Sequence record: NC_007637.1
Length of the DNA stretch: 45,251 nt
From: Escherichia phage K1E
Strand: one strand, 5' to 3'
In this document: one piece after another, positions 1 through 36,912 of the stretch
How the letters are laid out: each line of letters starts with the position of its first letter
Position numbering within the stretch: the first letter of the stretch is position 1
Notes under the pieces: model-generated
What the model saw: only the letters and a program-made list of their open reading frames with translations
Told to the model about the DNA's origin: nothing
Databases searched by the model: none
Program-made: the position numbers and the translations under genes

Positions 1-288
1 TCTCGCCCTCGCCCTCGCCGGATTTTCCCCATATGGGGCCGCGCTGCGGTTGGCTTGGGGATTGGGCTAGGCTGGGCCGTCTTCAACCTGCTGCCGCAGG
101 AAGCTCGATGGGTTGGCTGAGGGTTGCCGAGGGCTGCGCTTAGTGGTACACAAGTAGAACGCCTAGGAAGCGCTAGGGCACGCCTTAGTGTTGGACAAGG
201 TGATTGCCTTAGTGCAACCGTTTAGGGCTTACACAGGCCGTTTTAGGGCAATTCCTGAGTGTTTGACAGGGTGTGAGGGTGTGGGCTA
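1..288. repeat. Left direct terminal repeat (288 bp)
   Basis: The first 288 nt (tctcgccctcgccctcgccggattttcccc ... gggtgtgggcta) recur at 44964..45251 with a constant offset of 44963. Begins with three CTCGCC hexamers and is GC-rich. Confidence 0.85.
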
Positions 289-2674: not shown

Positions 2675-2788
2675 ATGGAAAGGCAATATAACTTCATCTT
2701 CTCAGACGGTGTAACCCTGAAATGTTCCTTACGATTTGCGCAGATTCGTGAGGAAGTGCTAGGTACTACATACAAACTATTTAGCTGA
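2675..2788 (+). CDS. Hypothetical small protein (37 aa)
   Basis: ATG 2675 just after the upstream stop; weak evidence; its 3' end overlaps a promoter-like sequence. Confidence 0.2.
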   Translation: MERQYNFIFSDGVTLKCSLRFAQIREEVLGTTYKLFS

Positions 2789-2801
2789 CACTATAAGAGA
2801 A
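2779..2801 (+). promoter_or_regulatory. Weak SP6-type phage promoter-like sequence
   Basis: ATTTAGCTGACACTATAAGAG: two mismatches to the consensus, including A instead of G at +1. Confidence 0.35.
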
Positions 2802-3092: not shown

Positions 3093-3155
3093 CTAGCCTA
3101 TAGCCTGCCTGTGTGGGCTATGTGATATTTACTTACACTATATAAGGTGACTATT

Positions 3156-4103: not shown

Positions 4104-6731
4104 ATGCAAGACCTACACGCTATTCAACTTCAACTTGAAGAAGAAATGTTTAACGGCGGCATCCGTCGCTTTGAAGCGGACCAACAACGCCAGATTGCAT
4201 CCGGTAATGAATCAGACACGGCATGGAATCGCCGCTTATTGTCCGAACTAATCGCACCTATGGCGGAAGGTATTCAGGCTTACAAGGAAGAATACGAAGG
4301 CAAGAGAGGTCGTGCACCACGTGCATTAGCTTTCATTAACTGCGTAGGAAACGAAGTGGCAGCATATATCACCATGAAAATCGTTATGGATATGCTGAAT
4401 ACAGACGTTACCTTACAAGCTATCGCTATGAATGTAGCAGACCGCATCGAGGACCAAGTACGTTTTAGCAAGCTGGAAGGTCACGCAGCTAAGTACTTTG
4501 AGAAAGTGAAGAAGTCGCTTAAGGCTAGCAAGACTAAATCTTATCGTCATGCGCACAACGTAGCGGTAGTAGCTGAGAAATCTGTTGCTGACCGTGACGC
4601 GGATTTCTCCCGTTGGGAGGCATGGCCTAAAGACACCTTGCTGCAAATCGGTATGACCTTGCTCGAAATATTGGAGAATAGTGTATTCTTCAATGGTCAA
4701 CCTGTCTTCCTTCGTACCTTGCGCACTAACGGCGGAAAGCATGGTGTTTACTATTTACAGACCAGTGAACATGTTGGCGAGTGGATAACTGCATTTAAGG
4801 AACATGTAGCGCAGCTCAGCCCTGCCTATGCACCTTGCGTTATACCTCCCCGCCCTTGGGTATCACCTTTTAACGGTGGGTTTCATACTGAGAAAGTAGC
4901 AAGCCGTATTCGTCTGGTAAAAGGCAATCGTGAGCACGTCCGCAAGCTGACCAAAAAGCAAATGCCAGCCGTTTATAAGGCTGTTAACGCTTTGCAGGCA
5001 ACTAAGTGGCAGGTTAATAAAGAGGTTTTACAGGTTGTGGAGGACGTTATACGTCTAGACCTCGGCTATGGTGTACCTTCCTTTAAACCACTCATCGACC
5101 GTGAGAACAAGCCAGCTAATCCGGTGCCGTTAGAGTTCCAGCACCTGCGAGGCCGTGAACTGAAAGAAATGTTAACACCGGAACAATGGCAAGCCTTCAT
5201 CAACTGGAAAGGTGAATGCACCAAGCTGTATACCGCTGAGACTAAGCGCGGCAGCAAATCGGCGGCGACCGTCCGCATGGTAGGGCAGGCCCGTAAATAC
5301 AGCCAATTTGACGCAATATACTTCGTGTATGCTCTGGACAGCCGCAGCCGCGTCTACGCGCAATCTAGCACGCTCTCTCCGCAATCAAACGACTTAGGCA
5401 AGGCATTGCTCCGTTTTACCGAAGGGCAGCGTCTTGATAGCGCTGAGGCGCTTAAGTGGTTTTTGGTGAACGGGGCTAATAACTGGGGTTGGGATAAGAA
5501 AACTTTTGACGTGCGCACCGCTAACGTGCTGGATAGTGAATTTCAAGACATGTGCCGCGACATTGCAGCGGATCCGCTGACCTTCACTCAATGGGTAAAT
5601 GCCGACTCCCCTTACGGCTTCCTTGCATGGTGCTTTGAATATGCGCGTTATCTGGATGCACTGGATGAAGGCACGCAAGACCAATTCATGACGCACCTCC
5701 CAGTCCATCAAGATGGTAGTTGTTCTGGTATCCAGCACTACAGTGCTATGCTACGCGATGCAGTAGGTGCGAAAGCAGTAAACCTTAAGCCCTCTGACTC
5801 TCCTCAAGATATTTATGGTGCCGTTGCGCAGGTAGTAATTCAGAAGAATTATGCATACATGAATGCAGAGGATGCGGAAACCTTCACTTCTGGCAGCGTG
5901 ACTTTAACAGGTGCGGAACTGCGTAGTATGGCTAGTGCGTGGGATATGATAGGAATCACTCGCGGCCTGACCAAAAAGCCCGTAATGACACTACCTTATG
6001 GCAGCACACGTCTAACCTGCCGTGAGTCAGTGATTGATTATATCGTTGATTTAGAAGAAAAAGAGGCCCAACGGGCTATTGCGGAAGGGCGTACCGCCAA
6101 TCCTGTACACCCTTTTGATAATGACCGTAAAGACAGCCTGACACCTAGCGCAGCTTATAACTATATGACAGCTTTAATCTGGCCTTCTATCTCGGAAGTG
6201 GTTAAAGCCCCTATAGTGGCAATGAAAATGATTCGTCAGCTTGCACGTTTCGCAGCTAAAAGAAACGAAGGCTTAGAATATCCCTTACCAACTGGCTTCA
6301 TCTTGCAACAAAAGATAATGGCTACCGATATGCTCCGCGTATCCACTTGCTTGATGGGTGAAATCAAGATGAGTCTCCAGATTGAAACAGATGTAGTTGA
6401 TGAAACGGCAATGATGGGTGCGGCTGCTCCTAACTTCGTCCATGGTCACGATGCTAGCCACCTGATTCTGACTGTATGTGACCTAGTGGATAAAGGTATT
6501 ACATCCGTTGCAGTCATCCATGATTCTTTCGGTACTCATGCAGGACGTACCGCAGACCTGCGGGATAGCTTAAGGGAAGAAATGGTTAAGATGTATCAAA
6601 ACCATAATGCCCTGCAAAACCTGCTAGATGTGCACGAAGAGCGTTGGTTAGTAGACACCGGAATCCAAGTACCAGAGCAAGGGGAGTTTGACCTTAACGA
6701 AATCTTAGTTTCAGACTATTGTTTCGCATAA
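4104..6731 (+). CDS. Single-subunit DNA-dependent RNA polymerase (T7/SP6 type, 875 aa)
   Basis: AGGAG RBS; motifs [19 protein letters not shown] and C-terminal ...DYCFA parallel T7 RNAP ([19 protein letters not shown], ...FAFA). Confidence 0.95.
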
Positions 6732-6804
6732 TATTAATAGGCCATTCCTTCGGGAGTGGCTTTCTTTTACCTACTACCTGTAACATTTCATTAACATAAA
6801 ACGT

Positions 6805-6820
6805 GTCTCACATGTGAGAC
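6805..6820. repeat. Palindromic hairpin GTCTCACATGTGAGAC, copy A
   Basis: Perfect 16-bp palindrome followed by TTTATTT, immediately upstream of the promoter at 6824. Confidence 0.7.
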
Positions 6821-6823
6821 TTT

Positions 6824-6846
6824 ATTTACCGGACACTATAGGATAG
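6824..6846 (+). promoter_or_regulatory. SP6-type phage promoter (+1 G at 6841)
   Basis: ATTTACCGGACACTATAGGATAG; the transcript would begin with hairpin ccgtc-gga-gacgg. Confidence 0.75.
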
Positions 6847-6986
6847 CCGTCGGAGACGGGAAAGAAAGGGAAGATAAAGGATATAAAGGAAGTAATAGGT
6901 ATTAAAGGTTATATAGGTTATCTAGGAATACCTATTACCTTCTTCCTTCCTCTTATTACCACTTAGAGGAAGGGCAGACCTAGGTT
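6847..6986. promoter_or_regulatory. Candidate primary replication origin: AT/purine-rich dyad region between two phage promoters
   Basis: Purine-rich run, then 11-bp inverted repeat taataggtatt (6893..6903) / aatacctatta (6927..6937), then a pyrimidine-rich run. Position matches the T7 primary origin, just downstream of gene 1. Confidence 0.4.
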
Positions 6987-7002
6987 GTCTCACATGTGAG
7001 AC
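6987..7002. repeat. Palindromic hairpin GTCTCACATGTGAGAC, copy B
   Basis: Perfect 16-bp palindrome, immediately upstream of the promoter at 7008. Confidence 0.7.
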
Positions 7003-7007
7003 TTCGT

Positions 7008-7030
7008 ATTTACCGGACAGTATAGATAAG
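7008..7030 (+). promoter_or_regulatory. SP6-type phage promoter (+1 G at 7025)
   Basis: ATTTACCGGACAGTATAGATAAG; one mismatch in the core. Confidence 0.65.
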
Positions 7031-7055
7031 ATTAACTCACTTTGGAGATTTAACC

Positions 7056-7184
7056 ATGCGTAACTTTGAGAAGATGACCCGTAAAGCTAACCGTTTTGAC
7101 ATGGAAGAAGGGCAGAAGAAAGGCAAGAAGCTGAATAAACCTGTCCGTGACCGTGCATCTAAACGCGCAGCGTGGGAGTTCTAA
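7056..7184 (+). CDS. Hypothetical small basic protein (42 aa)
   Basis: ATG 7056 with GGAGA upstream; stop TAA 7182..7184; found by manual translation. Confidence 0.4.
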   Translation: MRNFEKMTRKANRFDMEEGQKKGKKLNKPVRDRASKRAAWEF

Positions 7185-7187
7185 GTT

Positions 7188-7406
7188 ATGGCTAAATACA
7201 GAATCAAGACCTGTTTAAATAGTCACGGGCAAGAGTGTTACATAGTGCAACGTAAAGTATTAGGCTTAATATGGGTCACATGTATGATGCCTATTGGATA
7301 TACTGATACAGAGGCTATCTTCTGCACCGAAAGGGATGCAAAGCAGTTTATCTCTAAGCGTAGAAAAGCTGACTCTTATCAACCCAGAACTATTAAGGTG
7401 AACTAA
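7188..7406 (+). CDS. Hypothetical protein (72 aa)
   Basis: Track ORF; its stop overlaps the primase ATG (TAATG). Confidence 0.45.
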   Translation: MAKYRIKTCLNSHGQECYIVQRKVLGLIWVTCMMPIGYTDTEAIFCTERDAKQFISKRRKADSYQPRTIKVN

Positions 7407-9394
7407 TGGCTATTATTAATAACATCCCGTGTCCTGCTTGTCAGAAGAATGGACACGATAAATCCGGCAACCACCTCATGATATTTGATGATGGTGCTGG
7501 CTATTGCAACCGTGGTCACTTCCATGATAATGGCAAGCCCTACTATCACAAGCCAGAGGGTGGCATCGAGATAACCGAATTGCCTATTACTGGCAATATC
7601 AAATATACACCTTCTCAATTCAAAGAGATGGAGAAGGAAGGGAAGATAAGCGACCCTAAGTTGCGCGCCATCGCACTTGGTGGTATGCGTATGAAAGACC
7701 GTTGGGAGGTCATGAATGAGCAAGAAAGGGCAGACCAAGAAGCAGAGTGGAAACTTGATGTTGAATGGTTCCTCACGCTTAAGCGTAAGAACCTTGTGTC
7801 CCGTCACATTCGAGGTGACATCGCAGCAATGTACGATGTGCGCGTTGGACACGATGAAGAGGGAAGAGTCAACCGTCACTATTATCCACGATATGAAAAG
7901 GGTGTGCTTGTTGGAGCAAAATGCCGGACGTTGCCGAAGGATTTTAAGTTCGGACACCTAGGTAAACTCTTTGGTATGCAAGACCTTTTCGGTATGAATA
8001 CTTTGTCTCACGTGTTAGACAAGGGAAGACGAAAGGATTGCTTGCTTATTGTGGGCGGCGAACTGGATGCACTAGCAGCACAGCAAATGCTCCTTGATTC
8101 TGCCAAGGGTACTAAGTGGGAAGGCCAGCCTTACCATGTATGGTCTGCCAATAAAGGTGAGTCTTGCCTTGAAGAGATAGTGCAAAACCGTGAGCACATA
8201 GCCCAATTCAAGAAGATTATATGGGGCTTTGATGGCGACGAGGTGGGGCAGAAGCAGAACCAACAAGCTGCTCGCCTGTTTCCTGGCAAATCCTACATCC
8301 TCGAATATCCCTCTGGTTGCAAAGATGCTAACAAGGCATTGATGGCTGGCAAGGCTAAAGAGTTTGTTGATGCTTGGTTTAATGCCAAGTCATCTGATGA
8401 AGTCTTTGGTAGCCAGATTAAATCTATCGCATCTCAAAGGGATAAGCTCAAGGCTGCACGTCCAGAGCAAGGACTATCATGGCCTTGGCCTAAGCTGAAC
8501 AAGGTAACGCTAGGTATTCGTAAGAACCAGCTTATCATTGTAGGTGCAGGCTCTGGTGTAGGTAAGACTGAGTTCCTTCGTGAAGTAGTTAAGCACCTCA
8601 TTGAAGAACACGGTGAATCTGTAGGCATCATTTCTACAGAAGACCCGATGGTCAAGGTGTCCCGTGCTTTTATCGGCAAGTGGATTGATAAGCGTATTGA
8701 GTTACCGCCAACCAACGACCCGAAAGAAGACGGATACCGTGAGGTGTTCGACTACACCGAGGAAGAAGCTAACGCTGCCATTGATTATGTGGCTGATACA
8801 GGAAAGTTATTTGTGGCTGACCTAGAAGGCGACTATTCTATGGAGAAGGTAGAGCAAACTTGCCTAGAGTTTGAGGCTATGGGCATTTCTAATATCATCA
8901 TTGATAACTTAACGGGGATTAAATTAGATGAGCGTGCTTTTGGTGGGAAGGTTGGTGCACTTGATGAATGCGTCAAACGAATTGGTACTATCAAAGACCG
9001 ACATGCGGTTACGATTTTCCTTGTCTCTCACCTTACACGTCCTCCGGCAAACCGTACCCAACACGAAGAAGGTGGCGAAGTTATCCTTTCTGACTTCCGA
9101 GGCTCAGGCGCTATCGGATTCTGGGCATCTTACGCCTTGGGGATTGAGCGTAATACAAGAGCTGAAACGCTTGACGAAAGGACTACCACGTACATCTCAT
9201 GTGTCAAAGACCGCGACCAAGGTATCTGGACTGGAACCAAGGTCATGCTTAAGGGTGACATTCAAACCGGACGTTTAATGGAACCACAAGCCCGTACTAA
9301 GTCATTTGATACAGGTGAAGCAAGGCAACAAGAAGTGCCGGATTTACCGGACACTATAGAAGAGACAACCTTTGACGATGAACAGGAGTTTTAA
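7406..9394 (+). CDS. DNA primase/helicase (T7 gp4-like, 662 aa)
   Basis: N-terminal Cys4 zinc ribbon (CPACQKNGHD...CNRGH), Walker A GAGSGVGKTEF, acidic C-terminus ...FDDEQEF ending in Phe as in T7 gp4. Confidence 0.9.
   Translation: MAIINNIPCPACQKNGHDKSGNHLMIFDDGAGYCNRGHFHDNGKPYYHKPEGGIEITELPITGNIKYTPSQFKEMEKEGKISDPKLRAIALGGMRMKDRWEVMNEQERADQEAEWKLDVEWFLTLKRKNLVSRHIRGDIAAMYDVRVGHDEEGRVNRHYYPRYEKGVLVGAKCRTLPKDFKFGHLGKLFGMQDLFGMNTLSHVLDKGRRKDCLLIVGGELDALAAQQMLLDSAKGTKWEGQPYHVWSANKGESCLEEIVQNREHIAQFKKIIWGFDGDEVGQKQNQQAARLFPGKSYILEYPSGCKDANKALMAGKAKEFVDAWFNAKSSDEVFGSQIKSIASQRDKLKAARPEQGLSWPWPKLNKVTLGIRKNQLIIVGAGSGVGKTEFLREVVKHLIEEHGESVGIISTEDPMVKVSRAFIGKWIDKRIELPPTNDPKEDGYREVFDYTEEEANAAIDYVADTGKLFVADLEGDYSMEKVEQTCLEFEAMGISNIIIDNLTGIKLDERAFGGKVGALDECVKRIGTIKDRHAVTIFLVSHLTRPPANRTQHEEGGEVILSDFRGSGAIGFWASYALGIERNTRAETLDERTTTYISCVKDRDQGIWTGTKVMLKGDIQTGRLMEPQARTKSFDTGEARQQEVPDLPDTIEETTFDDEQEF
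9342..9364 (+). promoter_or_regulatory. SP6-type phage promoter inside the 3' end of the primase/helicase gene (+1 G at 9359)
   Basis: ATTTACCGGACACTATAGAAGAG; perfect core. Confidence 0.7.
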
Positions 9395-9555
9395 TGGAAA
9401 TTATTAAACCAGTATTGAATATCGGTATTGAGATCCTATTCATGCTTGTGATCGCAGATTATGCTGCACGATATGGATTCAAGAAAGCTGTGAAACTTAT
9501 CGTTGCATCTGGTTTTCTTATGTCAATGTTCTTTATTGTAACACGCCTTATCTAG
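9394..9555 (+). CDS. Hypothetical small membrane protein (53 aa)
   Basis: ATG overlaps the primase stop (TAATG); AGGAG 5 nt upstream; two hydrophobic segments; found by manual translation. Confidence 0.45.
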   Translation: MEIIKPVLNIGIEILFMLVIADYAARYGFKKAVKLIVASGFLMSMFFIVTRLI

Positions 9556-9566
9556 TGTATTTATCA

Positions 9567-9594
9567 GGGCTTGTCTCACATGTGAGACAGGCTC
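9567..9594 (+). terminator. Palindromic hairpin (core GTCTCACATGTGAGAC, 9573..9588) with U-rich tail; terminator-like
   Basis: gggcttgtctcacatgtgagacaggctc followed by ttatta. Confidence 0.5.
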
Positions 9595-9627
9595 TTATTA
9601 AGTACATTAAATAACTGGAGATTGATT

Positions 9628-10311
9628 ATGTATAGATTAGTATTGAATGTAGGTGATTATGTTCGTAACATCAATGAAGCCTCACGTCGTTATCGTTGCC
9701 GTGGTGTAGTGGCTCGTGTAAGTGAGAACATGTATCATGTAGAATATGAGGATGGTATTAAGGCTTCTTACCACAAGAAAACAGCACATAAATATCTTGA
9801 AAAGATTGTAGAGATAAACAATCAATGTAAGTGCATACATGATGAGGTTTGCGATAAATGTGCTCGCCAGATGCTTAAGAATTTCCTAGCTCCTCTTTAT
9901 TATGGTGCTGGTCCTCAAACACTAGCAGAGTACATGGCAGAAAAGAAAACCACACTCAAGAAAGAGCGTCGCAATGTAATCACTGGTAAGACTCAAAGTG
10001 AAATGATTAAGCAATGTGGCACTGCATTAGGTGTTACACAGTTCAATACTCGTGCATTGGGTAAATCCACAGGGCAAGCTATGGTGAAAATTGGTGAAGC
10101 TATGATGCACCCAAATGTGCCTGTGCGAATCTTGGATGTTGACCATGCAATCACAGAGCATGGCACACCACGGCGTGTAGCTAATAATCATTTCGCCGAC
10201 ACTATAGAAGGTATTATTCGTAAGCAAGGGTTGAAGGGTCTTCACATCTTAAATGGTGAAGAATTACTGTACCTACCTATCGTTACTGAAGAAACCTACG
10301 TGAATATCTAA
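9628..10311 (+). CDS. Hypothetical protein (227 aa)
   Basis: Track ORF starts at TTG 9622; first ATG is 9628 with GGAG upstream. Confidence 0.55.
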   Translation: MYRLVLNVGDYVRNINEASRRYRCRGVVARVSENMYHVEYEDGIKASYHKKTAHKYLEKIVEINNQCKCIHDEVCDKCARQMLKNFLAPLYYGAGPQTLAEYMAEKKTTLKKERRNVITGKTQSEMIKQCGTALGVTQFNTRALGKSTGQAMVKIGEAMMHPNVPVRILDVDHAITEHGTPRRVANNHFADTIEGIIRKQGLKGLHILNGEELLYLPIVTEETYVNI

Positions 10312-10321
10312 GGAGTTAATC

Positions 10322-10540
10322 ATGACTAAGGTATTAATTTATATGCGTGGACCTCATAAATGCTATGCAGTTGTAGCACCAGATGGTGTCAAGACATATG
10401 GTACTTCAAAGGGGTTTGCATTAATAGGTGCCAGTCTTAGTGCAAGTTTTCAGATGGAACTTTTCGGTCATTGGACTGAAAAAGAGTTCCGTGAGGAGTT
10501 TAATGTAATCGGCAGCTTTATGGTGAAACATGCAAAATAA
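10322..10540 (+). CDS. Hypothetical protein (72 aa)
   Basis: ATG with AGGAG upstream. Confidence 0.5.
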   Translation: MTKVLIYMRGPHKCYAVVAPDGVKTYGTSKGFALIGASLSASFQMELFGHWTEKEFREEFNVIGSFMVKHAK

Positions 10541-10739
10541 ACACAGTCTTAAGATGTTTGATGGTCACGAAGACCTGCAAGCACAAATTACTAACCAAGC
10601 CTTCCTGTTTGCACAGTTAACTATGGCTGAAGCAAAGAAGAATAGCCTGACGCGCGAGCAAGTTATCAAAGAGGCAACTTGGGAGCCACACCAAGGCAAA
10701 TACATGGGCCAGAAATTAACTGTAACACGCAGTCGATAA
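10530..10739 (+). CDS. Hypothetical protein (69 aa)
   Basis: Track ORF overlapping the upstream stop; start uncertain (alternative ATG at 10554). Confidence 0.4.
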   Translation: MQNKHSLKMFDGHEDLQAQITNQAFLFAQLTMAEAKKNSLTREQVIKEATWEPHQGKYMGQKLTVTRSR

Positions 10740-10746
10740 GTAAAGG

Positions 10747-10768
10747 GTTGTCTCACACGTGAGACAGC
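10747..10768 (+). terminator. Palindromic hairpin variant GTCTCACACGTGAGAC (10750..10765); terminator-like
   Basis: ggttgtctcacacgtgagacagcc followed by tttcatc; same arms as the other copies with a different central dinucleotide. Confidence 0.45.
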
Positions 10769-10796
10769 CTTTCATCATATTGATTGGAGGTGCATT

Positions 10797-10904
10797 ATGC
10801 CACGTGATTATGATTCTGATTGGGATTTCCAAGATTCAATGAACTCAAAACCTGAACGTTCAGATGACTACTACGAAACAGAGGCAATGTATGAAAGCTA
10901 TTAA
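10797..10904 (+). CDS. Hypothetical small acidic protein (35 aa)
   Basis: ATG 10797 with GGAGG 7 nt upstream; found by manual translation. Confidence 0.35.
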   Translation: MPRDYDSDWDFQDSMNSKPERSDDYYETEAMYESY

Positions 10905-11109
10905 AGTCAGTAAGGTTTGCTCTTGCGGTAAAGGTTATCGCAGTCGTATTGATGGTAAGTGTGGGCATTGCAGGTCTAAGAAAGAGGCTGCTTTGTTTGA
11001 TAAGTACCACAATGAATTAGCATATAACTATCCTCATCTAACACCTAATTCTTTATTAGGACTTGGTTATAGGGTTAAATACTTTGGAGCAATCTATGAA
11101 ATCAATTGA
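10891..11109 (+). CDS. Hypothetical Cys-rich (zinc-ribbon-like) protein (72 aa)
   Basis: Track ORF trimmed to ATG 10891 (GAGG 6 nt upstream); CSCGKGYRSRIDGKCGHC. Confidence 0.45.
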   Translation: MKAIKVSKVCSCGKGYRSRIDGKCGHCRSKKEAALFDKYHNELAYNYPHLTPNSLLGLGYRVKYFGAIYEIN

Positions 11110-13642
11110 TTGGAAGAAGGAAGCAGAAGGCCGCATCTTAGTGATGGATTCTGAGGCTAAAGGCCTGCTGGATGCTATCCGATATGGCCACCGCGAAGAT
11201 GTGCACATCATTTGCTGCATGGATTTGCTTACTACAGAGGAGTTCCTCTTCTTTGACCCATACGAGATGCGTGACCCTGAAGCAAGAGAACGCCTAAAAG
11301 AATGGGAAGGCCATCAAGATGGAACATTGGTTGACGGTGTTAACTTCCTTAAACACTGCGAAGCCATCGTCTCACAGAACTTCCTAGGGTACGACGGCCT
11401 TCTATTTGAGAAAGCATTCCCTGATATCTGGAAAGGCTTTAACTATACCGAGAGACGCGGCAAGGGCAGACTCCGCGCTGACCTGTGTCCGGTACGCGTC
11501 ATGGATACGCTGGTCATGAGTCGCCTGTTAAACCCCGATAGACGCCTCCCTCCGCAAGCATACGCCAAAGGCATGGGTAACGTAGCCCCTCACTCAATTG
11601 AGGCGCACGGCATTCGTATAGGCCGTTATAAGCCGGAGAACGAGGATTGGTCTAAACTAACTGACCACATGGTACATCGTGTACGCGAGGACGTGGCGAT
11701 AGGCCGTGACCTATTCCTCTGGCTATTTAACGGAGAATGGACGGAGCACAAACGCCGTGGCGTGAATAAACGCACTGGCCTAGGTATTGAGACAGCCTTC
11801 CACATGGAGTCCATTGTGGCGCTGGAGATGAGCCGTCAGGCCGAGCGTGGATTCCGTCTGGATATAGATAAAGCATTAGCACGATGCGAGGAATTGGACG
11901 CTAAGATTGATGAGACAGTCGCAGCGTTCCGTCCGCACATGCCTATGCGTATCAAGTCTAAACCTTTTAAACCGGAAGAAAAGAATGAAGTATGCCAACG
12001 CGCAAATGAGTATGGAGCTAGCAACAATATACCTACTGTCCTTGACCCCTCTCACTTTCTTCACGCAGAGAGACGAGGAGATCGCAAGACAGTATGGAGT
12101 GTCACTACTAAGTCTGGTGATTGGTCGGCTAGCGTCAAGAAAGACTTTCCTCACCTTAGAGGAAACCGTAATGACACGCCAAGCATCAAGTGGATTGGCG
12201 CTTACTCGCCTGTTACTTTCGAAGAGATTCCCTTGGGTAACAGGGATACAGTTAAGCAAGTGCTCTATGATTATGGATGGAAAGGTGTTGAATTTAACGA
12301 TACCGAGCAAGCGCATCTCGATGAGCATGGCGTATTACCCAAGCCTTGGAGTGGGAAGATAAATGAAAAGTCCCTTACTTTATGGCAAGAGAGAGCCGCA
12401 CGTGAAGGTAAAACAGTCCCTGATTGGTGCTTGGGTATCGCTGCATGGTACATACTCGTATCCCGTCGTGGTCAGATCCTCAACCGTGGTGACGTTGAAG
12501 CCTTCGACCAGAAGGGGGTGTGGCCTTCGCAAGCTGGTATACGAAAGTGTCGCGGCCTTGTACCTGTAGCATTTAACAAGGAGTTAGGAATCAATGCGCA
12601 GCAATACTACGAAAGGTACGGATGCTGGCCTACGTCAGACAAGGATGACGGAGAATGGCGTGTGCCAGCTATTGCTATTAGTATTGGAACTTCTACGTTC
12701 CGTATGCGTCATCGTAACGTGGTTAATATTCCTGCCCGTGGTTTGTATCCTTTACGTGATTTATTCATAGCCGGTAAAGGTAAGCTAATCCTTGGTTGTG
12801 ATGGTGCTGGTCTTGAACTACGTGTACTGTCTCACTTCATGAATGACCCTGAATATCAAGATATTGTACTGCATGGTGACATTCACACCCATAATCAAAT
12901 GAAGGCTGGTCTTCCTAAGCGTGACATGGCGAAGACATTTATATATGCCTTCCTATATGGGTCTGGTATAGCTAACCTTGCAGCAGTATGTGGTGTTACT
13001 GAGGAAGAAATGGAGGAAGTTGTGGCAAGATTTGAGGTTGAACTACCATCTCTTGCACGTCTTCGTGAGAATGTTATCGCACAAGGTAACAAGTTTGGCT
13101 ACCTACAAGCACCTGATGGTCATTGGGGTCGCATCCGTATGTCTGGTGGTGAACTTAAAGAGCACACTATGCTTAACGTACTACTCCAGATGACTGGTTC
13201 TCTGTGTATGAAATACGCATTGGTCAGAGCGTTTGCAGTGATGCGCAAGGAAGGTGTGGCCTTAGATAGCATGGGAAACCCTTGCGGTATAGCTAACGTG
13301 CACGATGAAATCCAGATGGAAGTCCCTGAAGATGAGGTCTTGTATCTCAACTACGACTTGCCTTTCACCTTAGAAGGGTTCGAAACAGAGAAGGCTGCTG
13401 TGAAAGCAGTGTTCGATGCAGAGGAGAAACGTGTTCATGTGGATTCTGAAGGACGTATGTGGTCTGCTGCAAATCTCGTTAGCGTTGATGCTGATGCTGG
13501 TGTACTTCATTGCCAGCGTCGCTATCACCGTGCAGGGCATATCATTGCCGACGCAATGACTTGGGCGGGTCAGTATCTGAAGATGCGTTGTCCGATGGCA
13601 GGTGAGTATAAGATTGGTGCAAGTTGGAAGGAAACACACTGA
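11096..13642 (+). CDS. DNA polymerase, family A (848 aa)
   Basis: Track ORF trimmed to ATG 11096 (GGAG upstream). Exonuclease motif VMDSEAKG, motif A CDGAGLELRVL, motif B RDMAKTFIYAFLYG, motif C VHDEIQ. Confidence 0.9.
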   Translation: MKSIDWKKEAEGRILVMDSEAKGLLDAIRYGHREDVHIICCMDLLTTEEFLFFDPYEMRDPEARERLKEWEGHQDGTLVDGVNFLKHCEAIVSQNFLGYDGLLFEKAFPDIWKGFNYTERRGKGRLRADLCPVRVMDTLVMSRLLNPDRRLPPQAYAKGMGNVAPHSIEAHGIRIGRYKPENEDWSKLTDHMVHRVREDVAIGRDLFLWLFNGEWTEHKRRGVNKRTGLGIETAFHMESIVALEMSRQAERGFRLDIDKALARCEELDAKIDETVAAFRPHMPMRIKSKPFKPEEKNEVCQRANEYGASNNIPTVLDPSHFLHAERRGDRKTVWSVTTKSGDWSASVKKDFPHLRGNRNDTPSIKWIGAYSPVTFEEIPLGNRDTVKQVLYDYGWKGVEFNDTEQAHLDEHGVLPKPWSGKINEKSLTLWQERAAREGKTVPDWCLGIAAWYILVSRRGQILNRGDVEAFDQKGVWPSQAGIRKCRGLVPVAFNKELGINAQQYYERYGCWPTSDKDDGEWRVPAIAISIGTSTFRMRHRNVVNIPARGLYPLRDLFIAGKGKLILGCDGAGLELRVLSHFMNDPEYQDIVLHGDIHTHNQMKAGLPKRDMAKTFIYAFLYGSGIANLAAVCGVTEEEMEEVVARFEVELPSLARLRENVIAQGNKFGYLQAPDGHWGRIRMSGGELKEHTMLNVLLQMTGSLCMKYALVRAFAVMRKEGVALDSMGNPCGIANVHDEIQMEVPEDEVLYLNYDLPFTLEGFETEKAAVKAVFDAEEKRVHVDSEGRMWSAANLVSVDADAGVLHCQRRYHRAGHIIADAMTWAGQYLKMRCPMAGEYKIGASWKETH

Positions 13643-13758
13643 TGGACAGGTTTGATATTGTTTGCCTATTCTCCACCTTCTTTCTTATATTCCTTATGCT
13701 TGCTTGCTATGGAAGTATGCGATTAGATATACCTGATGAAGAGGAGGGTTACGATTGA
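13642..13758 (+). CDS. Hypothetical small hydrophobic protein (38 aa)
   Basis: ATG overlaps the polymerase stop (TGATG); found by manual translation. Confidence 0.3.
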   Translation: MDRFDIVCLFSTFFLIFLMLACYGSMRLDIPDEEEGYD

Positions 13759-13856
13759 TGCAGGCATCTTTTATTATTCTTGGAGTCATATTATTTATGG
13801 TAGTATTCTGGGCTTTCTCTGGCATTGACCCAGATTGTGATGGTAACTACGACTGA
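13758..13856 (+). CDS. Hypothetical small hydrophobic protein (32 aa)
   Basis: ATG overlaps the upstream stop (TGATG); GAGGAGG upstream; found by manual translation. Confidence 0.3.
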   Translation: MQASFIILGVILFMVVFWAFSGIDPDCDGNYD

Positions 13857-13866
13857 GTTATACTCA

Positions 13867-13891
13867 AGGTCACTTACGAGTGGCCTTTATG
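13867..13891 (+). terminator. Candidate hairpin terminator
   Basis: aggtcact-tacg-agtggcct (8-bp stem with one G-U pair) followed by tttatgaataa. Confidence 0.3.
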
Positions 13892-13924
13892 AATAACTTA
13901 TTCCTACTTATTTTGTCTAACATG

Positions 13925-13947
13925 ATTTACTGGACACTATAGAAGGA
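13925..13947 (+). promoter_or_regulatory. SP6-type phage promoter (+1 G at 13942)
   Basis: ATTTACTGGACACTATAGAAGGA; followed by an AT-rich leader with CTAGGT repeats. Confidence 0.8.
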
Positions 13948-14011
13948 AAGCCTAGGTAATCTAGGTTTATAAGGTAGTATAGGTAATTAAATAAATATAG
14001 GAGATATAAAT

Positions 14012-14389
14012 ATGTCTATGGTAACTACTCTGGTATTCGTGGCTCAATACTTTCGTGGTCTTGCTAATAAGTTCAAGTCCAAGGCTATCAAAGCTATTGA
14101 GGCTCGCATCGAAGCAGTACAGGCAGAGCAAGTTAAAGTTGAAGAACATCGTAGTTCTCAAATGATTGACTGTCATAACCGCTACTATGCATCTCGTGAT
14201 GAACTAAATGCACGTCAAGTCAAAGAGGTAGAAGATATGCTGGCACGTCACCAGCAAGAGCGTGACAGCCTGAAAGCTGAATTTGAAGAGAACAAGGCAT
14301 CAATTGCTCTTGTAAATCAAGCTGCATCTGACAGCCTGAAGAAAGAGATTGTTATGCTGGAAATAGAACTGGACAACTTGACTAAATAA
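14012..14389 (+). CDS. Hypothetical protein, probable coiled coil (125 aa)
   Basis: ATG with TAGGAGA upstream; heptad-like charged sequence. Confidence 0.55.
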   Translation: MSMVTTLVFVAQYFRGLANKFKSKAIKAIEARIEAVQAEQVKVEEHRSSQMIDCHNRYYASRDELNARQVKEVEDMLARHQQERDSLKAEFEENKASIALVNQAASDSLKKEIVMLEIELDNLTK

Positions 14390-14395
14390 GGAGTT

Positions 14396-14695
14396 ATGAT
14401 GGAAGAAGTGATTCAAGCTAAACATGTAGGTATCATCTTTCGTGACCTAGAGCAGCGTAAAGTTGCAGGTCACACTCGTCTGGCTAAAGAAGACGATACA
14501 GCAATCACTACTGTGGAACAAGCAGATGCCTATCGTGGTCCAGAGTTTACTCAAGGTGAAACTTGTCATCAATTGAGCCTTTCACTTTGTGACACTATGG
14601 CTAGTGTAAATGTACAAGAGGTTGAAGATGGTGAATGTGTTAGTTATGTCTACCCTCTCGATACTATTGCACGTATTAAGGTAGTTCATAAGTAA
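14396..14695 (+). CDS. Hypothetical protein (99 aa)
   Basis: ATG with AAGGAG upstream. Confidence 0.55.
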   Translation: MMEEVIQAKHVGIIFRDLEQRKVAGHTRLAKEDDTAITTVEQADAYRGPEFTQGETCHQLSLSLCDTMASVNVQEVEDGECVSYVYPLDTIARIKVVHK

Positions 14696-14716
14696 TTACT
14701 GGACACTATAGAACAA
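14694..14716 (+). promoter_or_regulatory. SP6-type phage promoter (+1 G at 14711)
   Basis: AATTACTGGACACTATAGAACAA; overlaps the upstream stop codon. Confidence 0.7.
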
Positions 14717-14864
14717 TAGGTCGGCTTAGTTCGGCCTATGATTGTAAAGTGTCGTTGATGTTGAACCATTGTGCACCTTGCACAACCCGATACCGTATCG
14801 GGCTTTCTAGTGAGCACATGCTTGTGCTCAGTACAAAGCTAACTGACAATAGGAGACTAAATAA

Positions 14865-15671
14865 ATGGCACGTGGTGATTTCGATTTTGGTGCTTCCGTA
14901 TCTAAAGCTGAAGGTAAAGTCTTTAAGAATCCAGAAGTAGGTGATCATGAAGCAGTAATCTCTGGCATCATTCATGTTGGTTCCTTCCAAGACATCTTTA
15001 AGAAAGGTAATACCACTGAAGTTAAGAAGCCAGCAAACTTTGTTCTGGTTAAGATTGTCCTGATGGGTGACGATGACAAGAACGAAGATGGTTCTCGCAT
15101 GGAACAATGGATGGCTGTGCCTCTGAAGTCTGGTGATAAGGCAACACTGACTAAGTTCCTGAATGCAGTTGACCCTAAAGAGTTGCTGGGTGGCTTCGAT
15201 GATTTTATCGGTGAATGTCTGACTGCAACTATGGTTGGCTCTGGCGACAAGAATGATGATGGTACTTTCAAGTATGTTAACTGGAAAGGCTTTGGCGGTA
15301 TGCCTGATAAGTTGAAGAAGCTTGTACTGGCTCAGGTAGAAGAGGAAGGTCTGTCTATGACAGGTCATATCACCTTCGACAAGCTGACCAAAGAAATCAT
15401 TGATGACATCCCAGCTAACTTGGTACGTCAATACTTCCTGAACGAGACACCTCGTGGTAAGAACCTGTCTGTTGCTGGCTCTCACGTAGAAGCTATTATC
15501 AAAGCTGCTCGTGAAGAAGACCCTGAATGGAAGAAGGCTAAGAAGAAAGACGAGGAAGATGCTACCCCAGCTAATCGTAAATCTCTGGATACTGGTGAGT
15601 CTGTTCCGCAGGAAGTACCTGAAGCAGAAGATACGCCTGCACCGGAGATGGATGAGGACGCGGAATATTAA
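14865..15671 (+). CDS. Hypothetical replication-associated protein with acidic C-terminal tail (268 aa); candidate ssDNA-binding protein
   Basis: AGGAGA RBS; C-terminus ...PEMDEDAEY (acidic, aromatic last residue) resembles the DNA-polymerase-binding tails of T7 gp2.5 and gp4. N-terminal DFDFGASVS motif is shared with the exonuclease. Confidence 0.4.
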   Translation: MARGDFDFGASVSKAEGKVFKNPEVGDHEAVISGIIHVGSFQDIFKKGNTTEVKKPANFVLVKIVLMGDDDKNEDGSRMEQWMAVPLKSGDKATLTKFLNAVDPKELLGGFDDFIGECLTATMVGSGDKNDDGTFKYVNWKGFGGMPDKLKKLVLAQVEEEGLSMTGHITFDKLTKEIIDDIPANLVRQYFLNETPRGKNLSVAGSHVEAIIKAAREEDPEWKKAKKKDEEDATPANRKSLDTGESVPQEVPEAEDTPAPEMDEDAEY

Positions 15672-15680
15672 GGAGAACGG

Positions 15681-15899
15681 ATGAAAGTACAAATCGTAAC
15701 TCTGCATTGCAAGAAAGGAATCACCACACTTGGCGGCAATACTTTTCACTCCTTCTCTGAAGGGGAGACATACGCCGACCTTCACTATATCTGGCGTGAC
15801 GGGCAGCACGTGGTGAACTACAGCGACCCTGCGACTGGTAAACGCCACGGCGTGTCGCTTCCGGCGCACGACATTGCTCAGGTGAACACAGTTTTATAA
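15681..15899 (+). CDS. Hypothetical protein (72 aa)
   Basis: ATG with AGGAGA upstream. Confidence 0.5.
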   Translation: MKVQIVTLHCKKGITTLGGNTFHSFSEGETYADLHYIWRDGQHVVNYSDPATGKRHGVSLPAHDIAQVNTVL

Positions 15900-15900
15900 A

Positions 15901-15916
15901 GTCTCACGTGTGAGAC
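15901..15916. repeat. Palindromic hairpin variant GTCTCACGTGTGAGAC
   Basis: Reverse complement of the 10750 variant; lies immediately upstream of the promoter at 15932. Confidence 0.6.
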
Positions 15917-15931
15917 AAATCGGTGTCCGGT

Positions 15932-15954
15932 ATTTACTGGACACTATAGAAGAG
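15932..15954 (+). promoter_or_regulatory. SP6-type phage promoter (+1 G at 15949)
   Basis: ATTTACTGGACACTATAGAAGAG; perfect core. Confidence 0.8.
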
Positions 15955-16004
15955 AAGAATTTTAATCGGCGATAATGCCATAACCAACAAAAGGAGAATT
16001 TAAT

Positions 16005-16376
16005 ATGTTCAAGATTGAAACTATCGTAAACCGTGTTGTTAAAGGTGCTGCTCTGGTATCCGTTGAGTCTTTCATTATCGTCGATGAAGCTGATCAACTG
16101 GTAGCTGGTACTAAGGCTTACGATACCCGTGAAGAAGCTCAGGCTAAGATTGACAGCATGGGTAACTTCGCTGCTGGTCTGGAGTTTGCTCGTGCTTGCT
16201 TCCCTGAGCAGGCTGACAAAGCCCAGATCGGTAAGGCTAACATCGTAGCTGAATATCTGGATTGGATTGCTGCTGGTAAACCAGTGAAAGAAGTTAAAGC
16301 TGCTGAAGAAGCTGAAGCTCCGGCAGTAGAAGTGTCTGCACCGGAAGCTCCGGTTAGCGAAGAGGAAGAGTTTTGA
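16005..16376 (+). CDS. Abundant small protein with acidic C-terminal tail ending in Phe (123 aa); candidate ssDNA-binding or polymerase accessory protein
   Basis: Strong RBS AAAGGAGA; codon usage typical of a highly expressed gene; C-terminus ...APVSEEEEF. Confidence 0.4.
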   Translation: MFKIETIVNRVVKGAALVSVESFIIVDEADQLVAGTKAYDTREEAQAKIDSMGNFAAGLEFARACFPEQADKAQIGKANIVAEYLDWIAAGKPVKEVKAAEEAEAPAVEVSAPEAPVSEEEEF

Positions 16377-16434
16377 TAATAGCAGGTGTAGCCTCTGTTA
16401 GTCCTAGTTGACTATCACGCTCACCTCATCTAAT

Positions 16435-16470
16435 GCCCTGTCTGCCTTAGTGTAGGCAGGGTCTTTTGCG
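16435..16470 (+). terminator. Candidate hairpin terminator
   Basis: ctgcct-tagtgt-aggcag stem-loop in a GC-rich context, followed by ggtcttttg. Confidence 0.35.
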
Positions 16471-16493
16471 TAATAGTTATTGGAGAATGAATT

Positions 16494-16766
16494 ATGCCGA
16501 CTATTGAATCTCGAATTGAACTGGACATTAGCTACAATGCAATCACCAGACAGTATATTGGGGTTGCCTATGATTACAAAACTGGTGAGAAGCTAGTGGA
16601 GGTGAGACAATGGGATGACTATTGGTTAAGACAGAACCTCCATGATGCGGTGTCCTCCTTCTTGAAGGAGTGGCCTACATGCGACCAAACTTCGACTTCG
16701 GAGCTACAGTATCGGAAGACAATAATCTCATCCTGTGGCCAACTGAAGGTAATCGAATCGCTTTAA
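16494..16766 (+). CDS. Hypothetical protein (90 aa as read); 3' end overlaps the exonuclease gene by 88 nt
   Basis: ATG with GGAGA upstream; the true C-terminus is uncertain. Confidence 0.3.
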   Translation: MPTIESRIELDISYNAITRQYIGVAYDYKTGEKLVEVRQWDDYWLRQNLHDAVSSFLKEWPTCDQTSTSELQYRKTIISSCGQLKVIESL

Positions 16767-17704: not shown

Positions 17705-18102
17705 AAGCATCTGAAGTTGCTGCTTATAAGAAAGAGTTGCTAGAGAAGCAGGGCTGGAAATGTCCTATTTGTGGAGCACCTCTTAAAGCAGTGGCCGAGA
17801 TTAACCGAGTACTAGACCATTGCCATCGCAGAGGTTACTGTAGAGCGGTACTCTGTCGTGGGTGCAATGGCGGTATCGGGAAGATAGAAAACCTAGTAAA
17901 GACTTATTGTAAGGCTGGGGATAATGAGTATTTCATTATCAAGACATTGCGAAACATTGCAGATTATCTAGACTTACATAGTAAGCCTCAGACTGATAAG
18001 ATTTATCATAAACATCAAACGGAGGCAGAGAAGCGCGAGGCTAAGAACCGTAAGGCACGCCTTGCTTATGCAAGAAAGAAGAAGGAGGTTAAAGTTGGGT
18101 AA
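17689..18102 (+). CDS. Endonuclease VII-like junction-resolving nuclease (137 aa)
   Basis: CPICGAPL...LDHCHRRGYCRAVLCRGCNGGIG matches the T4 endonuclease VII zinc/His-Me finger pattern. Confidence 0.7.
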   Translation: MATKLKASEVAAYKKELLEKQGWKCPICGAPLKAVAEINRVLDHCHRRGYCRAVLCRGCNGGIGKIENLVKTYCKAGDNEYFIIKTLRNIADYLDLHSKPQTDKIYHKHQTEAEKREAKNRKARLAYARKKKEVKVG

Positions 18103-19102
18103 GCTTCGCAGCTTGTACAAAGACTCCGAGGTACTTGATGCAATCGAGCAAGCTACCGACGAGAAAGGTAATGTTAATTACAATGAGATGGCACGGATAT
18201 TATCGTGCCACCCTGTGGGTAAGAAGATTACCCGCCAGTTGGCTAGATACTGGCATGGTCAATTCAAGAAGACCAAGAAGAATGGTGATTACTACCAGAC
18301 CCTTCTGCAAGAGGATAAGCGTATCAAGGAAGAGCGTAAGCTCAGGACTCCTGACCGCTACGAGGATTTGGCTATTGTACCATTGCCTGACTCGCCTCAT
18401 CGAAGTGTACTGGTAATCCCTGATACCCATGCACCGTATGAGCACCCAGATACCTTAGAGTTCCTTGCAGCAGTGGCAGCACGTTACCGTCCTGATACGG
18501 TGGTTCATCTTGGAGATGAGGCAGACAAACATGCCTTATCGTTCCACGATTCGGACCCAAATCTGGACAGTGCTGGCATGGAGTTAGAGAAGGCCCGTGT
18601 CTTTATGCATAAATTACACAAGATGTTTCCTGTGATGCGCCTGTGTCATTCTAATCACGGCTCTATGCACTTCCGTAAGGCAAGCGCCAAAGGTATTCCT
18701 GTACAATATCTGCGTACCTATCGTGAAGTCTTCTTTCCGCATGGGGGTGGCGACCAGTGGGATTGGCAGCATACACACGTTCTTGAGTTGCCGAATGGTG
18801 AACAGGTTGCATTTAAGCATCAACCCGCAGGCTCAGTCTTAGCAGATGCAGCGCATGAGCGCATGAACTTAGTGTGCGGTCACTTGCATGGTAAGATGTC
18901 GGTGGAGTATGCACGTAATACACATGAACAGTATTGGGCTGTGCAGGGCGGCTGTTTGATTGATGAGTCATCTCGTGCATTTGCCTATGGTCGTGAGTCC
19001 AAATACAAGCCAGCATTAGGTTGTGTGGTTATTCTGGAGGGTGTGCCGCACATTGTCCCGATGCAGACCAATAGTGACAATCGCTGGATTGGTAAGATTT
19101 AG
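18095..19102 (+). CDS. Calcineurin-like metallophosphoesterase (about 335 aa); start uncertain
   Basis: Motifs VIPDTHAPYEH, HLGDEADKH and CHSNHGS. Track ORF starts at TTG 18062; proposed start is TTG 18095 (AAGGAGG 8 nt upstream); the first in-frame ATG is at 18188. Confidence 0.55.
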   Translation: MGKLRSLYKDSEVLDAIEQATDEKGNVNYNEMARILSCHPVGKKITRQLARYWHGQFKKTKKNGDYYQTLLQEDKRIKEERKLRTPDRYEDLAIVPLPDSPHRSVLVIPDTHAPYEHPDTLEFLAAVAARYRPDTVVHLGDEADKHALSFHDSDPNLDSAGMELEKARVFMHKLHKMFPVMRLCHSNHGSMHFRKASAKGIPVQYLRTYREVFFPHGGGDQWDWQHTHVLELPNGEQVAFKHQPAGSVLADAAHERMNLVCGHLHGKMSVEYARNTHEQYWAVQGGCLIDESSRAFAYGRESKYKPALGCVVILEGVPHIVPMQTNSDNRWIGKI

Positions 19103-19119
19103 TTGACACTATAGAACAA
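19097..19119 (+). promoter_or_regulatory. SP6-type phage promoter (+1 G at 19114)
   Basis: ATTTAGTTGACACTATAGAACAA; overlaps the upstream stop codon. Confidence 0.75.
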
Positions 19120-23505: not shown

Positions 23506-24425
23506 TGTCTTTCTCATTTACTGAACCGTCAACCACTCATCCTACTGCTGAAGAAAATCCGGTAGAAACCAAGGAGGTAACAACTGATGCTGCTACTACT
23601 GATGTTCCTGCTGATGCTGGCACTGCTGTACAAGATGACAATGCTGGTGCACAATCTACTGAAGACGCCGGAGGAGAAGCTTCTGGACAGCCTTCAGAAG
23701 AAGGAGACAATGGCGGAGAGAATGGTGAATCTAAGCCAGATGATACCGCGACCGACACTGAGGAAGTGCAGTACTTCTTCGGAGAATATGAAGTAACAGT
23801 AGATATACCACAGGATGTTACGGATAGCCTTAAAGAGAAGGGTATTGATGCTAAGCAGGTTGCCAAGGAACTCTATGCCAAAGATGGCAAGTTTGAGCTG
23901 TCTGATGCAACCAAGCAGAAATTGTATGATGCTTTTGGCAAGTTTGCGGTAGATGCTTACCTGTCAGGTCTTAAGGCTCAAAATGAAGCCTTCTTCCTGA
24001 AAGAAGCCAACGCAGCTAAAGAGTTGGAAGCAGCTAATACCCAACGCTTCTCTGATGTTTCTAAGGAAATTGGTGGAGAAGAAGGTTGGTCCCGTCTTGA
24101 GGCGTGGGCGCTTGAAACGCTATCCAATGACGAACTCACGGCATTCAATGCGGTGATGGAGTCTGGCAACCAATACCTCCAGCAATATGCTGTGCGTGAA
24201 CTAGAAAGCCGCCGTAAAGCTGCACAGGGTGATGACAAGCCAAACTTGATTGAGCCATCTGCACCTGCTGCCGCATCTGAGGATAATGGACCTCTGTCTC
24301 GCGAGCAGTATCTCCGTGAGATGATGACGCTGGGTTCCCGCTTCGGTACAGACAAGAAAGCTGCTGCTGAGTATCAGGCTAAGCTGGATGCTCGCCGCCG
24401 TGCGGGTATGGCTCGCGGACTTTAA
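23505..24425 (+). CDS. Capsid assembly scaffolding protein (306 aa)
   Basis: Acidic, Ala/Glu-rich protein between the portal and major capsid genes; TAATG coupling to the portal gene. Confidence 0.6.
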   Translation: MSFSFTEPSTTHPTAEENPVETKEVTTDAATTDVPADAGTAVQDDNAGAQSTEDAGGEASGQPSEEGDNGGENGESKPDDTATDTEEVQYFFGEYEVTVDIPQDVTDSLKEKGIDAKQVAKELYAKDGKFELSDATKQKLYDAFGKFAVDAYLSGLKAQNEAFFLKEANAAKELEAANTQRFSDVSKEIGGEEGWSRLEAWALETLSNDELTAFNAVMESGNQYLQQYAVRELESRRKAAQGDDKPNLIEPSAPAAASEDNGPLSREQYLREMMTLGSRFGTDKKAAAEYQAKLDARRRAGMARGL

Positions 24426-24430
24426 TCAGT

Positions 24431-24453
24431 ATTTACTGGACACTATAGAAGGG
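24431..24453 (+). promoter_or_regulatory. SP6-type phage promoter for the major capsid gene (+1 G at 24448)
   Basis: ATTTACTGGACACTATAGAAGGG; the transcript would start with hairpin gggaga-aatg-tctccc (24451..24466). Confidence 0.8.
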
Positions 24454-24501
24454 AGAAATGTCTCCCTAAATTATCAATTTGATTTATAAGGAGGTTTATT
24501 A

Positions 24502-25704: not shown

Positions 25705-25712
25705 TACCTATG

Positions 25713-25748
25713 CCCTATCTACCTTGCGTAGGTAGGGTTCTTTTTGTT
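25713..25748 (+). terminator. Hairpin terminator after the major capsid gene
   Basis: ccctatcta-ccttgcg-taggtaggg (9-bp stem with one G-U pair) followed by ttctttttgtt. Confidence 0.6.
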
Positions 25749-25758
25749 AGGAGGATTC

Positions 25759-32568: not shown

Positions 32569-32582
32569 TACCTAACTCAAGG

Positions 32583-32604
32583 CTTGTCTCACATGTGAGA
32601 CAGG
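32583..32604 (+). terminator. Palindromic hairpin (core GTCTCACATGTGAGAC, 32586..32601); terminator-like
   Basis: cttgtctcacatgtgagacagg followed by tcttta. Confidence 0.5.
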
Positions 32605-36903: not shown

Positions 36904-36912
36904 GGAGGTGAG

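Follow-up and report, generated by a model that had tools for sequence, protein, structure and literature searches.

Putative promoters of the phage RNA polymerase within the primase/helicase and small terminase genes of Escherichia phage K1E

The DNA analysed here (the window) is the 45,251-bp genome of Escherichia phage K1E (NC_007637.1), an SP6/K1E-type podophage. Exact direct repeats of 288 bp occupy its two ends (1..288 and 44964..45251), and the window is therefore the whole, complete linear genome. The nearest records in the phage collection are Vectrevirus genomes, with identities of up to 97.9%. Two stretches of protein-coding DNA in this genome carry the sequence of a promoter for the phage's own RNA polymerase. 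Site 1 (ATTTACCGGACACTATAGAAGAG, 9342..9364, covering −17 to +6) lies in the tail of the primase/helicase gene (7406..9394, 662 codons; phrog_239 DNA primase/helicase, Pfam DnaB_C). Site 2 (CAATACTGGACACTATAGAAGAA, 37182..37204) is promoter-like and lies within the small terminase subunit gene (37091..37390, 99 codons; phrog_891, PF11123). For the latter gene we used the GTG start at 37091, as in the relatives, which annotate a 300-nucleotide (nt) gene; the mechanical open reading frame (ORF) around site 2 is 37046..37390. A single-subunit (T7/SP6-type) RNA polymerase is encoded at 4104..6731 (PF00940, PF14700, phrog_414 with E = 4.8e-290) and is the enzyme that reads these promoters. Every identified gene and all 13 promoter sites are on the plus strand, and the orientation of the sites matches that of the genes served.

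The promoter family consists of a 23-bp sequence (−17 to +6) with 13 copies in the genome. Searching with the 23-mer at three mismatches or fewer gave eight matches, compared with none in 100 shuffles, and the 12-mer core at one mismatch or fewer gave 11 matches, against a shuffle mean of 0.34; the matches of both searches were all on the plus strand. A weight matrix was trained on nine promoters, with the tested sites left out of the training. It scored the 13 sites at 17.5–39.4 bits, and no other genomic position exceeded 3.7 bits; the lowest-scoring of the nine training sites reached 30.6 bits. Site 1, recovered by the 23-mer search, scored 38.9 bits and ranked third in the genome, while site 2, recovered by the 12-mer core search, scored 25.0 bits. 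A preliminary description of this sequence had placed a perfect-core promoter near the end of the primase/helicase gene and a slightly weaker one within the small terminase gene, and both were found where it put them and on the plus strand, with strengths that bear out these two descriptions.

Promoters of phage RNA polymerases are laid out as an AT-rich region at −17 to −13, an identity region at −12 to −8 and a melting TATA (PMC11617373). Site 1 fits every part of this layout, including the TATA at −4 to −1 and the G at +1. Site 2 fits it from −14 to +5; its bases at −17 to −15 are C, A and A, and four of the five bases from −17 to −13 are still A or T. Compared with the consensus, site 2 is identical at 17/17 positions from −12 to +5 and departs from it at −17, −16, −15 and +6; it loses matrix score only at −17 to −15 and at +6. 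The K1E polymerase and its promoter are already in experimental use (PMC6412113). An Rfam search gave no match at site 1 or site 2, and sigma-70-like promoter matches around the two sites were not commoner than in shuffles.

Site 1 begins 53 nt before the end of the helicase gene (stop codon counted), and its predicted +1, the G at 9359, is 33 nt upstream of the stop codon. Read in frame, the site encodes D646-L-P-D-T-I-E-E653 (DLPDTIEE) of the 662 residues, within an acidic C-terminal tail, VPDLPDTIEETTFDDEQEF. At both site 1 and site 2 a Glu codon begins at the +1 G, and the core GAC ACT ATA GAA GA is read as D-T-I-E-E. The K1E helicase aligns with T7 gp4 structures as far as residue 607, and its Pfam DnaB_C match extends to 604, which places the residues encoded by site 1 beyond the folded helicase core. 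By analogy, the tail is probably flexible. The C-terminal tail of T7 gp4 binds T7 DNA polymerase, and the K1E tail would correspond to it.

A transcript from site 1 is predicted to begin with a 35-nt 5′ leader (9359..9393, plus strand) that is still helicase coding sequence. The leader contains a Shine-Dalgarno sequence, AGGAG, at 9384..9388, which serves the next gene, and the helicase stop codon and the start codon of that gene overlap as TAATG. Thus the last 50-odd nt of the helicase gene encode protein, promoter, leader and ribosome-binding site together. The first gene downstream (9394..9555; phrog_15806) encodes a 53-residue hydrophobic protein of unknown function.

The region of site 1 was compared across 11 complete relatives and 36 viral-contig loci. 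In nearly all lineages a promoter is present in the homologous helicase codons, 27–42 nt before the stop codon, and each is of its own phage's type. Such own-type promoters were found in the tails of eight phages. K1E (Vectrevirus) has ATTTACCGGACACTATAGAAGAG, encoding DLPDTIEE, and the two Zindervirus phages, SP6 and PST_H2, have AATTAGGTGACACTATAGAAGAG (ELGDTIEE) and ATTTAGGGGACACTATAGAACAA (DLGDTIEQ), respectively. The corresponding sequences are AATTAGAGACCACTATAGAAGAA (ELETTIEE) in the Proteus phage MidiMira (Acadevirus), AAATAGGGGCTACTATAGAACAG (EIGATIEQ) in the Lelliottia phage phD2B (Tuodvirus) and ACTTAGGGCGGACTATAGAACAA (DLGRTIEQ) in the Pectobacterium phage PP1 (Axomammavirus). In the Klebsiella group, FBKp16 / pKV-BS375 (genus unassigned) carries CAATAGTGGCGGGTATAGAAGAG (PIVAGIEE), and the Erwinia phage Era103 (Eracentumvirus) carries AATTACCACCCAGCATAGAAGAA (ELPPSIEE).

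Each tail site was scored from −13 to −4 against the consensus of the other promoters of the same genome. Mismatches numbered 0–1 when a site was compared with its own consensus and 2–7 when it was compared with that of a phage of a different promoter type; SP6 and PST_H2 are of the same type, with a cross-mismatch of 0–1. The polymerases of lineages with different promoters differ in the region upstream of the conserved PNFVH motif, which we interpret as the specificity loop. Amino acids encoded by the specificity bases vary freely, and those at −12 to −5 change with the promoter type (LPD, LGD, LET, IGA, LGR, IVAG and PPS), and the invariant TATAGAAG/C of the tail sites is read as Ile-Glu, via ATA, in every case. 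TATAGAA is thus ATA GAA in all eight phages, although ATA accounts for 16% of the Ile codons in the K1E genome. A motif acting at the protein level alone would not lead to a rare codon being fixed in eight phages. Site 1 is highly likely to be an active, selected middle-gene promoter. On the comparison of relatives it is, we conclude, ancient and evidently shapes the sequence of the helicase tail.

A natural experiment that agrees with this is found in the Vectrevirus NIC06P3 (locus L005, 17913..18400), where insertion of an HNH endonuclease gene has separated the helicase from the old tail promoter. The NIC06P3 helicase has a different tail, without a promoter, and the old promoter, its leader and the Shine-Dalgarno sequence are all intact. 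There the promoter is read in another frame, as the last codons of the HNH ORF (...WTIYRTL*), and TATAG contains the stop codon. This DNA element persisted through the change in its coding role. In a distant metagenomic clade (53% identity) the tail has AAACCCGGACTACAG and a nearby promoter reads AAACCCGGACTATAG. At one locus, L028, no promoter was found in the helicase tail or within 1.5 kb downstream.

Within Vectrevirus, the diversity of the site 1 core is 0.014, compared with 0.081 in its flanks and a genome mean of 0.077. The site 2 core (−12 to +3), at 0.015, is level with the accepted promoters, which range from 0 to 0.02. Third-position diversity in both cores is 4–5 times below that in the rest of their genes, values that for windows this short are not significant. 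For site 2 the figures are 0.035 against 0.167, which is suggestive only as a sign of constraint. The within-genus tests of synonymous constraint were run on 9, then 19–21 and then 25–32 sequences and were not used as proof.

The predicted +1 of site 2 is the G at 37199, and in frame the site encodes A31-I-L-D-T-I-E-E38. It is present in all Vectrevirus sequences (32/32 in the pooled alignment), five of them newly recovered from metagenomes with a promoter-free probe. This probe was the upstream flank TTYAAYAARAARGCACAGGC, used without the promoter in a DNA-pattern scan of metagenomes; it returned 58 loci, nine of which were terminase genes and the rest chance matches. Other genera have the same small-terminase helix, FNKKAQAIL-D-[A/V]-IE-[E/G/D]-DPD, encoded by DNA unlike their own promoters; in PST_H2, for example, the codons are ATC TTA GAT GCA ATC GAG. 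The peptide ILD[A/V]IEE therefore predates site 2. To change an outgroup-type sequence to ATA CTG GAC ACT ATA GAA takes at least six or seven substitutions, all of them towards the consensus and one of them replacing Ala by Thr. Given the peptide LDTIE, the probability of the observed codons is ∼0.0025.

In the K1E genome, site 2 is the sole phage promoter between those at 24431 and 40033. A strong terminator-like hairpin (25712..25738, plus strand) follows ORF 24502..25704, and the next phage promoter is site 2, 11.4 kb downstream. The first gene after site 2 encodes the large terminase subunit (37387..40034, exons 37387..38556 and 39303..40034) and begins 188 nt past its +1. From this arrangement, a role for site 2 as a booster of terminase expression would be reasonable. 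We think it likely that site 2 initiates transcription; that it is kept by selection seems to us about evenly balanced. Across the relatives, site 1 follows the specificity of its own phage in eight cases and site 2 is confined to one specificity group. It had been proposed that promoter function constrains the amino-acid sequence at both places. This applies to site 1, where own-type promoters occur in eight phages, the residues covary and ATA is fixed. It carries over poorly to site 2, where the peptide is older than the promoter, there are variants at −8 and −7, and the link to the promoter is limited to Thr35 and the choice of codons.

We consider it very probable that both sites are promoters of the phage's own single-subunit RNA polymerase, located in protein-coding DNA. 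A number of observations weigh against this. The activity of both sites is something that we infer from the DNA, and the public records of SP6, K1-5, ACG-C91 and LL11 contain no promoter features. The within-genus synonymous-constraint tests were not significant: 60/656 windows of the helicase gene were equally conserved, and 13/95 windows of equal size in the small terminase gene were as low. K1-5 has a T at −7 of site 1. Site 2 scores below all nine training sites, its bases at −17 and −15 are unlike those of any other promoter of the genome, and it was seen in no genus other than Vectrevirus among those compared. Two natural variants of site 2 occur, one changed at −8 (Asp to Gly) and one at −7. 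Lastly, SP6 and PST_H2 have in common an internal site in gp36 that encodes LGDTIG (TTAGGTGACACTATAGGTG, 29393..29415 in SP6), and MidiMira gp36 (29516) retains the SP6-type version, mismatched to MidiMira's own promoters. Coding constraint alone can thus preserve a promoter-like string.

The last of these points bears on the possibility that site 2 is a cryptic by-product, in which a conserved terminase peptide happened to lie near the promoter sequence and the match was completed by drift or hitch-hiking, so that the polymerase may bind but the phage gains nothing. The restriction of site 2 to one genus, with a peptide that is older, would fit such an origin, as would its off-consensus AT-rich upstream part, its score, the lowest among the well-formed sites, the variants at −8 and −7 and the non-significant constraint test. 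However, site 2 differs from the outgroups by six or more changes, all in the direction of the consensus, the codon choice is improbable given the peptide, and the core is as conserved as the accepted promoters in the 32 Vectrevirus sequences. We regard the by-product explanation as possible but unlikely. It is barely credible that neither site is a promoter and that the coding of a DTIEE peptide resembles one by chance. Both sites do encode D-T-I-E-E in the same phase, but shuffles gave no such matches, the rare ATA is fixed in all lineages, NIC06P3 kept the promoter out of frame, and the DNA of site 1 follows each phage's promoter type while the residues change, which already contradicts a chance resemblance at site 1. 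Site 1 could also be kept mainly for a role other than mRNA synthesis, either in transcription-primed DNA replication or as a preferred recombination joint between gene modules. T7 replication origins use phage promoters, and the segment inserted in NIC06P3 has its boundary at the promoter. Nevertheless, a Shine-Dalgarno sequence and a start codon lie 25–35 nt past the +1 of site 1, its behaviour is that of the other middle promoters, and the paired promoters at 6824 and 7008 are a better positional analogue of the T7 primary origin; we hold such a role to be highly improbable.

If both sites are promoters of the phage polymerase, they would belong to a compact genome, transcribed in one direction, in which promoters are written into coding DNA. 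By analogy with T7 and SP6 biochemistry, the polymerase would bind duplex DNA from −17 to −5, its N-terminal domain touching the AT-rich −17 to −13 and its specificity loop touching −12 to −8; the TATA at −4 to −1 would then melt and transcription would start at the G of TATAG. Site 1 would be an ancient middle-gene promoter of the subfamily that adds transcripts for the 53-residue membrane protein, ORF 9622..10311 and the DNA polymerase region. The helicase tail would tolerate the residues dictated by the specificity region of the promoter, and when the polymerase of a lineage shifts in specificity, the promoter and the tail residues would shift together. Site 2 would be younger and Vectrevirus-specific, having arisen where ILD[A/V]IEE was a few substitutions short of a promoter core. 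Its effect would be to increase large-terminase transcription towards the end of an 11-kb promoter-less stretch, which lies behind the terminator that follows the capsid-position gene.

An extended form of this reading treats the helicase tail and its promoter as a co-evolving dual-coding unit across the Molineuxvirinae, with specificity switches rewriting three or four tail residues, and site 2 as a newborn promoter within a conserved terminase domain, reached from a pre-adapted peptide through about seven directed substitutions, Ala to Thr among them. We put this forward tentatively, as somewhat less probable than an even chance. In a literature search that left aside the primary genome papers, we did not find a description of the cross-genus covariation of tail and promoter or of the apparent birth of site 2. 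Both are evolutionary observations of modest weight.

The other promoters of the genome include several that also touch genes. Canonical promoters were identified with the weight matrix and the 23-mer search 3′ of the RNA polymerase gene (a pair at 6824..6846 and 7008..7030), 3′ of the DNA polymerase gene (13925..13947) and at 15932..15954. The same searches identified promoters at 24431..24453, upstream of the 400-codon ORF 24502..25704, whose positional counterpart in SP6 has the annotation major capsid protein, and at 41717..41739, upstream of ORFs 41759..42154 and 42222..44657. In position, the second of these ORFs corresponds to the tail spike gene of K1-5 and the endosialidase gene of ACG-C91. 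Three further canonical promoters lie at gene ends. At 14694..14716, bases −17 and −16 are shared with the stop codon of ORF 14396..14695; at 19097..19119, the promoter extends over the stop codon and the two final codons of ORF 18062..19102; and at 40033..40055, bases −17 and −16 are shared with the stop codon of the large terminase gene. The first two of these were found with the 12-mer core search and the third with the 23-mer search, all with support from the weight matrix. These gene-end promoters are of the same family as sites 1 and 2 and likewise share bases with coding sequence, but they overlap only 2–6 nt of a gene, whereas sites 1 and 2 overlap by the whole 23 bp. Several accepted promoters overlap stop codons or last codons, and promoter-coding overlap is normal in the K1E genome.

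A third intragenic promoter-like site, ATTTCGCCGACACTATAGAAGGT (10190..10212, 17.5 bits), was found with the 12-mer core search within ORF 9622..10311 and was not among the intragenic sites listed in the preliminary description. Conservation of this site extends to K1-5 and SP6 gene 11 but not to the more distant genera, and its core diversity within the genus is 0.010. A stable stem-loop lies 5–15 nt past the +1 of most intergenic promoters (13925, 14694, 19097, 24431 and 41717; z = −1.9 to −4.0). The intragenic sites at 9342 (z = +0.5) and 10190 are without one, and the hairpin after site 2 (z = −1.8) is not retained in K1-5. A 5′ hairpin past +1 was therefore rejected as a promoter criterion. 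Terminator-like hairpins were at background level in 24000..42500 (16 vs 12.3) and above it in 6500..16500 (16 vs 6.4), and the scan of these two regions found none at site 1 or site 2.

In the early region, upstream of the RNA polymerase gene, there are atypical promoter-like sites at 2779..2801 and 3127..3149. The first has A rather than G at +1 and a strong hairpin just after it (−17.1 kcal/mol, z = −3.8), and it is conserved in K1-5, other Vectrevirus genomes and PST_H2. A 16-nt palindrome, GTCTCACATGTGAGAC, occurs in identical form at 6805..6820 and 6987..7002, 3–5 nt upstream of the promoters at 6824 and 7008. The two copies, placed like T7 phi1.1A/B, could form a paired element that serves regulation or an origin of replication. 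Where other Vectrevirus genomes have the K1E-type orthologue of the 41717 promoter, NIC06P3 has an SP6-type promoter (4575..4597, ATTTAGGTGACACTATAGAAGAG), which suggests that a module was imported along with its foreign promoter. In the Klebsiella phages, an own-type site is found instead in the gene next to the gp36 position, and turnover of internal promoters between lineages appears to occur in the late gene block. The K1E large terminase gene is split, relative to K1-5, by a 746-nt insertion (38557..39302) that contains a group I intron (Rfam RF00028, 63.6 bits, match 38525..38732) and an endonuclease ORF (38777..39310) with HNH, GIY-YIG and NUMOD-like matches. The same split occurs in PST_H2 and phD2B, and SP6 and K1-5 are without it.

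The finding is ordinary and its practical consequences are small. Polymerase start sites would be lost or introduced if the two genes were recoded or codon-optimised, as in the refactoring of a therapeutic K1-specific phage or when the helicase is expressed under the control of K1E or SP6 polymerase. For this reason the promoters ought to be annotated; the public records examined mark none. The helicase-tail site is a clean natural case of a DNA signal and a protein sequence that share bases and evolve together, and the helicase gene alone could mark the promoter specificity of a new phage.

Phage-polymerase promoters within coding sequence are textbook T7 biology and the kind of element is already known. 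The closest counterpart of site 1 is the promoter in SP6 gene 10 (primase/helicase; NC_004831, 8411..8433), which has the orthologous position in the tail, the same phase (ELGDTIEE) and the same initiation region, TATAGAAGAG. The two differ in the specificity bases at −12 to −9, GGTG in SP6 and CCGG in K1E, with Gly and Pro as the respective residues, and in the distance from the +1 to the next gene start, which is 173 nt in SP6 and 35 nt in K1E. The SP6 gp36 site has the same phase and a D-T-I peptide like those of sites 1 and 2. It lies, however, in a different, late structural gene, and its MidiMira copy did not follow the change in polymerase specificity, whereas site 1 did. In T7, the class II promoter phi4c (start at 12671 of NC_001604) shows the same arrangement, being located inside gene 4 (11565..13265, primase/helicase), and phi4.3 starts in the last bases of gene 4.2 according to the T7 record. 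The T7 promoter has a different sequence, belongs to another subfamily (Studiervirinae) and lies ∼590 nt before the end of gene 4, within the helicase domain. As site 1 is in the tail, it is analogous to phi4c rather than orthologous.

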